Of a stretch of DNA of 64,000 bases, positions 6,424 through 22,433 are shown one piece after another. The first letter of the stretch is position 1. Each line of letters starts with the position of its first letter. Under the pieces are notes generated by a model. It saw only the letters and a program-made list of their open reading frames with translations. It had not been told where the DNA came from and searched no databases. The stretch is from Escherichia coli (GTDB lineage: Bacteria; Pseudomonadota; Gammaproteobacteria; Enterobacterales; Enterobacteriaceae). The DNA lies in the NCBI RefSeq assembly GCF_044324785.1, contig NZ_CP172127.1; one strand, 5' to 3'. A program made the translations under genes and the position numbers.

Positions 6424-7083
6424 ATGACGCAGGATGAATTGAAAAAAGCAGTAGGATGGGCGGCACTTCAGTATGTTCAGCCCGGCACCATTGTTGGTGT
6501 AGGTACAGGTTCCACCGCCGCACACTTTATTGACGCGCTCGGTACAATGAAAGGCCAGATTGAAGGGGCCGTTTCCAGTTCAGATGCTTCCACTGAAAAA
6601 CTGAAAAGCCTCGGCATTCACGTTTTTGATCTCAACGAAGTCGACAGCCTTGGCATCTACGTTGATGGCGCAGATGAAATCAACGGCCACATGCAAATGA
6701 TCAAAGGCGGCGGCGCGGCGCTGACCCGTGAAAAAATCATTGCTTCGGTTGCGGAAAAATTTATTTGTATTGCCGACGCCTCCAAGCAGGTTGATATTCT
6801 GGGCAAATTCCCGCTGCCAGTAGAAGTTATCCCGATGGCACGTAGTGCAGTGGCGCGCCAGCTGGTGAAACTGGGCGGTCGTCCGGAATACCGTCAGGGC
6901 GTGGTGACCGATAATGGCAACGTGATCCTCGACGTCCACGGCATGGAAATCCTTGACCCGATAGCGATGGAAAACGCCATAAATGCGATTCCTGGCGTGG
7001 TGACTGTTGGCTTGTTTGCTAACCGTGGCGCGGACGTTGCGCTGATTGGTACACCTGACGGTGTCAAAACCATTGTGAAATGA
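6424..7083 (+). CDS. rpiA: ribose-5-phosphate isomerase A, 219 aa
   Basis: ORF 6352..7083 trimmed to ATG giving [31 protein letters not shown]. Confidence 0.9.
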
Positions 7084-16707: not shown

Positions 16708-19581
16708 ATGACACAGACGTTAAGCCAGCTTGAAAACAGCGGCGCTTTTATTGAACGCCATATCGGACCGGACGCCGCGCAACAGCAAGAAATGCTGAAT
16801 GCCGTTGGCGCACAATCGTTAAACGCGCTGACCGGCCAGATTGTGCCGAAAGATATTCAGCTTGCGACCCCGCCGCAGGTTGGCGCACCGGCGACCGAAT
16901 ACGCCGCGCTGGCGGAACTCAAGGCTATTGCCAGTCGCAATAAACGCTTCACGTCTTACATCGGCATGGGTTACACCGCCGTGCAGCTACCGCCGGTTAT
17001 TCTGCGTAACATGCTGGAAAATCCGGGCTGGTATACCGCGTATACTCCGTATCAACCTGAAGTCTCCCAGGGCCGCCTTGAAGCACTGCTCAACTTCCAG
17101 CAGGTAACGCTGGATTTGACCGGGCTGGATATGGCCTCTGCTTCTCTTCTGGACGAGGCCACTGCTGCCGCCGAAGCAATGGCGATGGCGAAACGCGTCA
17201 GCAAACTGAAAAATGCCAACCGCTTCTTCGTTGCTACTGACGTCCATCCGCAAACGTTGGATGTGGTACGTACTCGTGCCGAAACCTTTGGTTTTGAAGT
17301 GATTGTCGATGACGCGCAAAAAGTGCTCGACCATCAGGACGTCTTCGGCGTGCTGTTACAGCAGGTTGGCACAACCGGTGAAATCCACGACTACACTGCG
17401 CTCATCAGCGAACTGAAATCACGCAAAATTGTGGTCAGTGTCGCCGCCGATATTATGGCGCTGGTGCTGTTAACTGCGCCGGGTAAACAGGGCGCGGATA
17501 TTGTTTTTGGTTCGGCGCAACGCTTTGGCGTACCGATGGGTTACGGTGGCCCACACGCGGCATTCTTTGCGGCGAAAGACGAATACAAACGCTCAATGCC
17601 GGGCCGTATTATCGGTGTATCGAAAGATGCAGCTGGCAACACCGCTCTGCGCATGGCGATGCAGACTCGCGAGCAACATATTCGTCGTGAGAAAGCGAAC
17701 TCCAACATTTGTACTTCCCAGGTGCTGCTGGCAAACATCGCCAGCCTGTATGCCGTTTATCACGGCCCGGTTGGCCTGAAACGTATCGCTAACCGCATTC
17801 ACCGTCTGACCGATATCCTGGCGGCGGGCCTGCAACAAAAAGGTCTGAAACTGCGTCATGCGCACTATTTCGACACCTTGTGTGTGGAAGTGGCCGACAA
17901 AGCGGGCGTACTGACGCGTGCCGAAGCGGCTGAAATCAACCTGCGTAGCGATATCCTGAACGCGGTTGGGATCACCCTTGATGAAACCACCACGCGCGAA
18001 AACGTGATGCAGCTTTTCAGCGTGCTGCTGGGCGATAACCACGGGCTGGAGATCGACACGCTGGACAAAGACGTGGCTCACGACAGCCGCTCTATTCAGC
18101 CTGCGATGCTGCGCGACGACGAAATCCTCACCCATCCGGTGTTTAATCGCTACCACAGCGAAACCGAAATGATGCGCTATATGCACTCGCTGGAGCGTAA
18201 AGATCTGGCGCTGAATCAGGCGATGATCCCGCTGGGTTCCTGCACCATGAAACTGAACGCCGCCGCCGAGATGATCCCAATCACCTGGCCGGAATTTGCC
18301 GAACTGCACCCGTTCTGCCCGCCGGAACAGGCAGAAGGTTATCAGCAGATGATTGCGCAGTTGGCTGACTGGCTGGTGAAACTGACCGGTTACGACGCCG
18401 TTTGTATGCAGCCGAACTCTGGCGCACAGGGCGAATACGCGGGCCTGCTGGCGATTCGTCATTATCATGAAAGCCGCAACGAAGGGCATCGCGATATCTG
18501 CCTGATCCCTGCCTCTGCGCACGGCACTAACCCGGCTTCCGCGCATATGGCAGGCATGCAGGTGGTGGTTGTGGCGTGTGATAAAAACGGCAACATCGAT
18601 CTGACTGATCTGCGCGCGAAAGCAGAACAAGCGGGCGATAACCTCTCCTGTATCATGGTGACCTATCCTTCCACCCACGGCGTGTATGAAGAAACGATCC
18701 GTGAAGTGTGTGAAGTCGTGCATCAGTTCGGCGGTCAGGTTTACCTTGATGGCGCGAACATGAACGCCCAGGTCGGCATCACCTCACCGGGCTTTATTGG
18801 CGCGGACGTCTCGCACCTTAACCTGCATAAAACTTTCTGCATTCCGCACGGTGGCGGCGGCCCTGGTATGGGACCGATCGGCGTGAAAGCGCATCTGGCA
18901 CCGTTTGTGCCAGGTCATAGCGTGGTACAAATTGAAGGCATGTTAACCCGTCAGGGCGCGGTTTCTGCGGCACCGTTCGGTAGCGCCTCTATCCTGCCAA
19001 TCAGCTGGATGTACATCCGCATGATGGGCGCAGAAGGGCTGAAAAAAGCAAGCCAGGTGGCAATTCTTAACGCCAACTATATTGCCAGCCGCCTGCAGGA
19101 TGCCTTCCCGGTGCTGTATACCGGTCGTGACGGTCGCGTGGCGCACGAATGTATTCTCGATATTCGTCCGCTGAAAGAAGAAACCGGCATCAGCGAACTG
19201 GATATTGCCAAGCGTCTGATCGACTACGGTTTCCACGCGCCGACCATGTCATTCCCGGTGGCGGGTACGCTGATGGTTGAACCGACCGAATCCGAAAGCA
19301 AAGTGGAACTGGATCGCTTTATCGACGCGATGCTGGCTATCCGCGCAGAAATTGACCAGGTGAAAGCCGGTGTCTGGCCGCTGGAAGATAACCCGCTGGT
19401 GAACGCGCCGCACATTCAGAGCGAACTGGTCGCCGAGTGGGCGCATCCGTACAGCCGTGAAGTTGCGGTATTCCCGGCAGGCGTGGCAGACAAATACTGG
19501 CCGACAGTGAAACGTCTGGATGATGTTTACGGCGACCGTAACCTGTTCTGCTCCTGCGTACCGATTAGCGAATACCAGTAA
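16708..19581 (+). CDS. gcvP: glycine dehydrogenase (decarboxylating) P protein, 957 aa
   Basis: ORF 16624..19581 trimmed to ATG at 16708 ([21 protein letters not shown]); PLP-enzyme length and composition. Confidence 0.9.
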
Positions 19582-19603
19582 TTCACTGATTCGACTATTT
19601 TCT

Positions 19604-19626
19604 AAAGGCGCTTCGGCGCCTTTTTA
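19604..19626 (+). terminator. rho-independent terminator of gcvTHP
   Basis: AAAGGCGC-TTCG-GCGCCTTT hairpin with UUCG tetraloop followed by TTTTT. Confidence 0.8.
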
Positions 19627-19659
19627 GCTTGTTAATAAAGTGCGCTTTGTGTGTCGGAT

Positions 19660-19735
19660 GAAGCGTAAATATAAACTCCTGGAGTTCAATATATGACAGG
19701 AGCGCCAGGCCTGATGAGCGGGGCGCATCAGGCAC
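19660..19735. repeat. REP/BIME-like palindromic element between gcvP and bglA
   Basis: CGGATGAAGCGTAAA resembles REP consensus; perfect 8-bp inverted repeat GCCTGATG...CATCAGGC at 19709-19733. Confidence 0.45.
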
Positions 19736-19744
19736 ATCGGGTAA

Positions 19745-21205
<1,461 letters not shown>

Positions 21206-22357: not shown

Positions 22358-22393
22358 TGGGGGTACCTTTGTAGGCCTGAAAAGACACACCCG

Positions 22394-22428
22394 TGTCGCA
22401 TCAGGCGATAAATGCCTGATGCGACACA
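22394..22428. repeat. REP-like palindrome / bidirectional terminator between convergent yqfA and ygfZ
   Basis: GTGTCGCATCAGGC - gataaat - GCCTGATGCGACAC perfect 14-bp arms. Confidence 0.55.
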
Positions 22429-22433
22429 GAGAT

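Follow-up and report, generated by a model that had tools for sequence, protein, structure and literature searches.

REP elements are imperfect palindromes of 30-40 nt that form a stem-loop and usually occur in pairs as BIMEs; a conserved GTAG 5' of the palindrome foot is needed for binding by TnpA-REP, and the REPs of Escherichia coli fall into types y, z1, and z2 (PMC3333891). YgfF, the product of ygfF, has glucose 1-dehydrogenase activity in vitro (PMC10645960), an assignment that has been accepted as a correct prediction (PMC12506659). A search of the literature on ygfF returned function-prediction and promoter papers only, in which polymorphism between gcvP and bglA is not covered. The order in K-12 MG1655 is bglA (b2901), ygfF (b2902), and gcvP (b2903), and the stop codons of bglA and gcvP lie 1,066 bp apart. 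Here we analyse the corresponding junction in a 64,000-nucleotide stretch of an E. coli genome (henceforth the window), in which ygfF is missing. The spacer is very probably the empty allele of a variable gcvP/bglA slot, which arose once and long ago by the loss of a cassette.

The gcvP and bglA genes of the window are convergent and their stop codons are separated by exactly 163 bp (19582-19744), the distance given in a sequence-only reading of this DNA; the bglA stop reads TTA on the plus strand (19745-19747). Running from gcvP to bglA, the spacer contains a terminator hairpin, a unique box (A-box), a decayed REP half, a linker, a REP-like palindrome, and a 10-bp tail (Table 1). The encoded BglA is 99% identical to K-12 BglA over 479 residues by tblastn. 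Strain XDL is 100% identical to the window over 1,163 bp (19082-20244), and its RefSeq annotation shows gcvP (2,874 nt) and bglA (1,434 nt) with nothing in between. An Rfam scan (E <= 1) found no Rfam family in 19300-20000. A 53-codon ORF (19693-19854) that starts in the linker after GGAG and runs antisense into bglA was rejected as almost certainly spurious, because its ATG is ATT in the alleles of O157, Nissle 1917 (EcN), and PE164. The 3' part of gcvP together with the whole of bglA (18182-21178) diverges by 3-4% from K-12, O157, and EcN alike, and only 7 of 5,426 complete E. coli genomes match 19082-20244 at 99% identity or more; the strain appears to belong to a relatively uncommon lineage.

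Table 1. Features of the gcvP-bglA junction, in window coordinates
Feature	Position	Strand	Description	Basis
gcvP (glycine decarboxylase)	16708-19581	+	957 codons plus TAA stop (19579-19581)	ORF list
Intrinsic-terminator hairpin	19604-19625		AAAGGCGC-TTCG-GCGCCTTT, T5 on the plus strand	inverted repeat, folding
A-box	19628-19651		CTTGTTAATAAAGTGCGCTTTGTG, 24 bp, first window-specific sequence relative to K-12	BLAST breakpoint
REP1	19652-19684		decayed REP half in iREP orientation, TGTCGGATGAAGCGTAAA..., without terminal CTAC	alignment
Linker	19685-19704		TTCAATATATGACAGGAGCG, 20 bp, joins the two REP-like elements	
REP2	19705-19734		REP-like imperfect palindrome CCAGGCCTGATGAGCGGGGCGCATCAGGCA	inverted repeat, folding
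Tail	19735-19744		CATCGGGTAA, 10 bp, abuts the bglA stop codon	BLAST breakpoint
bglA (6-phospho-beta-glucosidase A)	19745-21178	-	convergent with gcvP	ORF list

The window and K-12 share the flanking genes, their orientation, and the gcvP terminator hairpin, and the flanks are 97% identical. BLAST homology continues through the terminator to 19627 at 99.6% identity and resumes exactly at the bglA stop (19745) at 97.5% identity. Between these points, however, the window has 117 bp where K-12 has 1,020 bp, in which ygfF stands between a GC-rich palindromic repeat and a REP-like hairpin. The K-12 gene order expected by the sequence-only reading is correct, and K-12 does not have the same 163-bp junction but a 1,066-bp interval with ygfF. 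BLASTN at word size 7 against K-12 detected no ygfF remnant in the 117 bp, and a tblastn search with K-12 YgfF detected no YgfF or SDR homologue anywhere in the 64-kb window (best E = 0.27), which confirms that the expected short-chain dehydrogenase gene is absent. The palindromic repeat in the K-12 gcvP-ygfF spacer is ~130 bp long (CCCTCGCCCCTTTGGGGAGAGGG...CCCTCTCCCTGAAAGGGCGAGGGG; L001, 7975-8100, reverse strand), and we take it to be BoxC-like; about half of it is found in E. ruysiae-type loci (L105-L108, about 2420-2450).

The arms of the terminator hairpin (AAAGGCGC, 19604-19611, and GCGCCTTT, 19616-19623) enclose a TTCG loop and run into the T5 at 19621-19625, giving a G+C-rich hairpin directly before a U-tract as expected of an intrinsic terminator. 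The GGCGC/GCGCC stem is extendable to 8 bp and folds at -12.7 kcal/mol on the plus strand and -12.3 on the minus strand (z = -2.9 and -3.4, respectively), in agreement with the clean terminator noticed from the letters alone. A promoter/terminator pattern scanner called no terminator in 19400-19950; we set this result aside since folding gives a clear hairpin with a T-run, the scanner presumably having missed it because three of the five T's are counted into its maximal stem. Hairpin and T-run are invariant in all aligned E. coli, E. albertii, and Salmonella sequences and are present in Citrobacter sp. FP75. The hairpin would act as the gcvTHP terminator. Intrinsic terminators between convergent genes may be bidirectional, and this one resembles such terminators in having a single G+C-rich hairpin that is preceded by an A-run and followed by a T-run, comparable folding energies for the two strands, and convergent genes on its two sides. 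It departs from the model in that the minus-strand U-tract is short (the minus strand offers an A-run and a short T-run, UUU AG AAAA) and in that REP2 sits between bglA and the hairpin. Because the hairpin is nearly symmetric, it could also stop read-through from bglA, making 19604-19625 a candidate bidirectional terminator for gcvTHP and, distally, for bglA.

The REP-like element reported from the letters was recovered as REP2, and a second, decayed half (REP1) was found beside it. The REP2 arms (GCCTGATGAGC, 19709-19719, and GCGCATCAGGC, 19723-19733) are 11 nt long and 91% complementary with a gap of 3 nt, and the palindrome folds at -17.6 kcal/mol on the plus strand and -16.1 on the minus strand. 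It is extragenic, lying between the gcvP and bglA stops, and is conserved in O157, EcN, and PE164, while E. albertii has a homologous intact copy (CTCTGATAAGCGTAGCGCATCAGACA) at the same relative position. We take REP2 to resemble the z2 type, with about 25 of 30 positions matching the z2 consensus. REP1 is degenerate and recognisable only through intact orthologues in alleles that carry a transporter gene in the same slot (see below): it aligns to TGTCGGATGCAGTGTGAGCACCTTATTCAGGCTAC in Salmonella (L093) and to TGTCGGATGCCGCGTGAGTGC...CAAGCTAC in E. coli SWHEFF_68, both of which retain the CTAC, whereas REP1 has lost the CTAC and its second arm. The pair thus has a BIME-like layout, with REP1 in iREP and REP2 in REP orientation across a 20-bp linker, a 30-nt G+C-rich extragenic palindrome, and a location at the 3' ends of convergent genes. 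In contrast to a canonical BIME, CCAG instead of GTAG precedes GCCTGATG in the window, O157, EcN, and PE164. With GTAG absent from REP2 and an arm and CTAC absent from REP1, "REP-like" is the right word, and both elements appear to be decayed relics rather than canonical elements competent for TnpA-REP. REP2 would be the first hairpin in the bglA 3' UTR, a position of the kind usual for REP elements. Only one other clear REP cluster was found in the window, at 22370-22430 (containing GTAGGCCTGAAAAG...CGCATCAGGC), where a REP pair, GTAGGCCTGAAAAGACACACCCGTGTCGCATCAGGC followed by GCCTGATGCGACAC..., occupies the trhA-ygfZ spacer.

To place the junction within the species, we used 5,426 complete E. 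coli genomes. A ygfF gene is present in 3,057 of them, near full length in 3,053 (about 56%), and the short junction in 2,360, with 2,348 covering at least 80% of the query (about 43%); a transporter cassette accounts for a further 17 genomes plus one remnant. By identity to the window, the short junctions comprise 398 at 99% or above, 36 at 95-99%, 4 at 90-95%, and 1,922 at 80-90%. They therefore form two sequence types, the window type (about 434 genomes, the minority) and the O157/B2 type (1,922), which differ by about 12% over 171 bp, mostly within 19650-19705. Short junctions of 163-165 bp with the same endpoints and architecture as the window, although with the divergence just given and of the commoner type, are found in O157:H7, O55:H7, EcN, LF82, and an ST131 strain, and APEC IMT5155 also has the short junction; the ygfF-positive strains include K-12, ATCC 8739, and E24377A. 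By phylogroup, these ygfF-positive and short-junction strains correspond roughly to A/B1 and B2/E, respectively. Alignment of the window with O157:H7, EcN (B2), and PE164 placed the endpoints of the short junction at the same positions, and these shared endpoints argue for a single origin of the empty allele.

These counts bear on whether a deletion or rearrangement occurred in this genome in particular, as the sequence-only reading had proposed. Loss of ygfF as a derived state is upheld by the comparison with other genera given below, but the loss is not private, as the same junction is found in 2,348 of the 5,426 genomes. A recent private deletion or an assembly artefact would have nothing to recommend it beyond the contrast with K-12, and the identical junction of XDL, the matches at 99% or more in 398 genomes, and the homologues in 2,348 refute it, leaving it a negligible prospect. 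The empty junction is an ordinary, old, and widespread presence/absence polymorphism, already visible in public annotation; it is neither specific to this genome nor a new kind of element.

Several individual genomes show other changes at the locus. E. coli 2017-02-2CC (L005, 4786-5766) has the transposase gene of IS621 (IS110 family) between gcvP and ygfF, in a repeat-rich spacer; IS621 targets REP sequences. In HS-02 (L004, 2983-3047) the junction is 65 bp, a further ~100 bp being deleted between the A-box and the bglA stop, and the stop codon of bglA is TAG. In HH97 (L003, 2500-3010) the ygfF region consists of GC-rich, homopolymer-ridden sequence in which ygfF can be recognised only by its final ~47 bp. 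The region has no annotated CDS, and it looks as if the assembly or consensus went wrong locally, not as if the strain really differed.

We searched genome contigs with the GcvP C-terminus to collect a sample of matches in relatives, and used exact-protein look-ups for the contexts in E. albertii, Salmonella, and E. ruysiae-type loci. Among the matches listed, ygfF directly follows gcvP in the same orientation in Citrobacter werkmanii, Citrobacter sp. FP75, Enterobacter cloacae, and Superficieibacter, lies within about 0.8 kb downstream of gcvP in Rahnella, Yersinia, and Pantoea, and lies up to ~3.2 kb downstream in one Enterobacter sp.; the only non-coli Escherichia among them is E. albertii, on a contig that stops 324 bp beyond gcvP. 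These YgfF proteins are 83% to 66% identical to that of K-12, the more distant taxa having the lower values, and Citrobacter has the order gcvP-ygfF-REP(s)-bglA, as in K-12. E. ruysiae-type loci read gcvP, a 167-bp spacer, ygfF, and bglA, with ygfF 93.4% identical to that of K-12 and flanks at 95-96%. E. coli ws5-3 (L089, 1267-1500) carries a divergent ygfF allele, 93% identical to K-12, and in its gcvP-ygfF spacer a REP pair (BIME) stands between two copies of the gcvP terminator hairpin; the 90% cluster of its YgfF includes a sequence labelled E. ruysiae and Escherichia MULTISPECIES, which is the protein encoded by the E. ruysiae-type loci. Judged by gene order, ygfF is ancestral for the family and was present in the genus, and the empty state is derived, because gcvP-ygfF adjacency is conserved in other genera and in E. 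ruysiae-type loci.

The opposite polarity, in which the short junction is ancestral and both ygfF and the transporter were inserted later into an empty spacer, could draw on the age and wide distribution of the empty allele, on the absence of ygfF from E. albertii and Salmonella as well, and on the signs of horizontal movement in the transporter cassette. Against it stand the adjacency of gcvP and ygfF in seven other genera across Enterobacterales, with identity declining with distance as above, and the 93% DNA identity of ygfF in E. ruysiae-type loci, both of which fit vertical descent, as well as the K-12 ygfF leader TTTTTCTCGGAAAAACAAATG, which matches the leaders of Citrobacter sp. FP75 and ws5-3. 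Moreover, Enterobacter sp. Bisph1 (L012, 6491-6700) and Mangrovibacter (L022, about 6530-6560) have independent internal ygfF deletions, with N- and/or C-terminal parts of the gene surviving between gcvP and bglA, so that loss of ygfF is recurrent. We consider insertion into an ancestrally empty spacer very improbable and, for ygfF, largely refuted.

A third state of the slot is occupied by a transporter gene. In Salmonella enterica, gcvP is followed by a 297-codon "transporter" gene of the Phenol_MetA_deg family and then by bglA (L093, 10427-11822), and the transporter occupies the same slot in E. albertii (L102, 3538-4937) and in the 17 E. coli genomes mentioned above, for example SWHEFF_68 (L100, 2369-3763). 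The SWHEFF_68 gene is annotated at 750 nt instead of 894 because of an early in-frame TAG. In WB61 (L101, 134-3122), a deletion begins at the 3' end of gcvP and reaches into the transporter gene; since both genes are annotated as partial pseudogenes, this strain may be without a working glycine cleavage P-protein.

In an alignment of the DNA that follows gcvP, the left end of transporter-type alleles proved collinear with the A-box, REP1, linker, and REP2 of the window. The A-box has 2-3 mismatches in 24 to the transporter-type alleles of SWHEFF_68 and Salmonella, matches E. albertii at about 17 of 24 positions, and is partial in E. ruysiae-type loci. The linker, in the form TTCAATATAT(T)(A/G)CAG, is common to the Salmonella and SWHEFF_68 alleles and was not found in the ygfF alleles compared (K-12, ws5-3, and E. 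ruysiae-type). Collinearity thus extends over the ~120 bp next to gcvP (terminator, A-box, REP1, and linker, with REP2 in E. albertii). Beyond REP2, by contrast, transporter alleles have about 1.24 kb before the bglA stop, made up of AT-rich sequence leading up to the gene, the gene, and a terminator hairpin of its own, whereas the window goes straight to bglA; homology to every other allele resumes at 19745, directly after the tail. The left ~120 bp of the junction thus appear to have their orthologue in the DNA that precedes the transporter cassette, and, given the collinear A-box, REP1, linker, and REP2, the short allele is structurally closest to a transporter-type allele minus its cassette. 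The E. ruysiae-type ygfF allele shares pieces of the left part (CTTGCTGATAA and CGTAAATAT), so left-flank homology is not exclusive to transporter alleles, and similarity between REPs is weak evidence of orthology because REP elements are multicopy. We also tried the E. albertii sequence past REP2 as a decayed ygfF 3' end and rejected it (56/300 and 16/300 shuffles equalled the match); this sequence is the upstream region of the transporter gene. A similarity between the K-12 ygfF-upstream sequence and a stretch of E. albertii termed region B (CAGTTTGTTAG) was equalled by 20/500 shuffles and is suggestive only.

These comparisons suggest how the empty allele may have formed. The slot has three main states in Escherichia: ygfF (an SDR glucose 1-dehydrogenase), the Phenol_MetA_deg transporter, and nothing. 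Most likely, the ancestor of the empty allele had the transporter cassette or, failing that, the region upstream of it, and a segment of about 1.24 kb from the second REP to the bglA stop would then have been removed. Left behind would be the gcvP terminator, the short unique box, the decayed BIME-like pair, and a 10-bp tail fused to the bglA stop, and the REP2 hairpin and the shared terminator would now provide the bglA 3' end signals. This single old loss would since have been passed down through several phylogroups, probably with recombination helping it to spread. The last gene to go need not have been ygfF, the transporter being the other candidate. A possible relic in the tail, CGGGTAAT (19738-19745), corresponds to the right arm of the E. 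albertii cassette terminator hairpin (15/1000 shuffles score as well). The direction of the change between short and transporter alleles, deletion or insertion, rests on this one 8-mer, a match chosen post hoc. The sequence-only reading had pictured a deletion from the K-12 arrangement; the derived loss stands, but the junction is not a simple scar, as its 117 bp are orthologous to the left end of transporter alleles.

Alternatively, ygfF could have been cut directly from a K-12- or E. ruysiae-like allele in an ancestor by recombination between REPs upstream and downstream of the gene, leaving REP2 as a hybrid. Such REPs exist: ygfF alleles have downstream REP-like hairpins (GACCGGATGCAAC...TTGCATCCGGTAC in K-12, GGGCGGATGCAACGC...GCGTCGCATCCGTC in E. 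ruysiae-type loci, and a single REP or BIME in Citrobacter), REPs precede ygfF in ws5-3, and the insertion of IS621 seen in one genome likewise shows that the gcvP-ygfF spacer varies. In addition, the right arm of REP2 with the tail, GCATCAGGCACATCGGGTAATTA, resembles K-12 GCATCCGGTACTTCATCGACTTA (34/1000 shuffles) and also E. ruysiae-type ...CATCTAATCA; within the tail, this same comparison sets CATCGGGTAATT beside K-12 CATCCGGTACTT. This shuffle support is weak, however, and no better than that for the relic of the transporter cassette. Among the matches listed by megablast, none from A-box to REP2 overlaps an annotated ygfF; the linker TTCAATATATGACAG occurs only in transporter-type alleles, the ygfF alleles compared being without it; and the E. 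albertii REP2 is upstream of the transporter cassette, not beside bglA. No parental configuration for a REP-REP deletion was present among the ygfF alleles compared. We therefore regard direct removal of ygfF as unlikely, though worth keeping in view, and favour loss of a cassette from a transporter-type progenitor. Microhomology-mediated deletion and REP-REP recombination are both possible mechanisms for the loss, whichever gene went last; the REP-mediated rearrangement put forward by the sequence-only reading is weakly suggested, with the resemblance of the tail to the K-12 arm (34/1000 shuffles) set against the rival relic (15/1000).

The transporter cassette itself has probably moved between genera. 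The E. coli cassette is 96.1% identical to that of Salmonella and 89.5% to that of E. albertii, but in their flanks the E. coli transporter alleles match Salmonella at 88-92% identity and E. albertii at 95-96%, placing the cassette closer to the former and the flanks closer to the latter. Because of these opposed identities, the transporter alleles now seen in E. coli may have been acquired recently instead of representing the progenitor. The transporter state is common to E. albertii and Salmonella, and the ygfF state to E. ruysiae-type loci and part of E. coli, namely K-12-like strains, as well as to most other Enterobacterales. We tentatively entertain, at somewhat less than even chances, a locus with three states (ygfF, Phenol_MetA_deg transporter, or empty) whose alleles are older than the species or move between them. 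On this view, the contrast between cassette and flanks would imply allele replacement between genera by homologous recombination in the conserved flanks.

For E. coli, these results make ygfF an accessory gene, absent from lineages including O157:H7, Nissle (EcN), LF82, and ST131, and the K-12 gene order is therefore not to be assumed at gcvP-bglA. The frequent and repeated loss of ygfF suggests that the gene is dispensable. The locus offers a small example of turnover in a REP-rich spacer between convergent genes and could serve as a lineage marker; the mildly interesting part is the three-state, partly trans-species nature of the slot.
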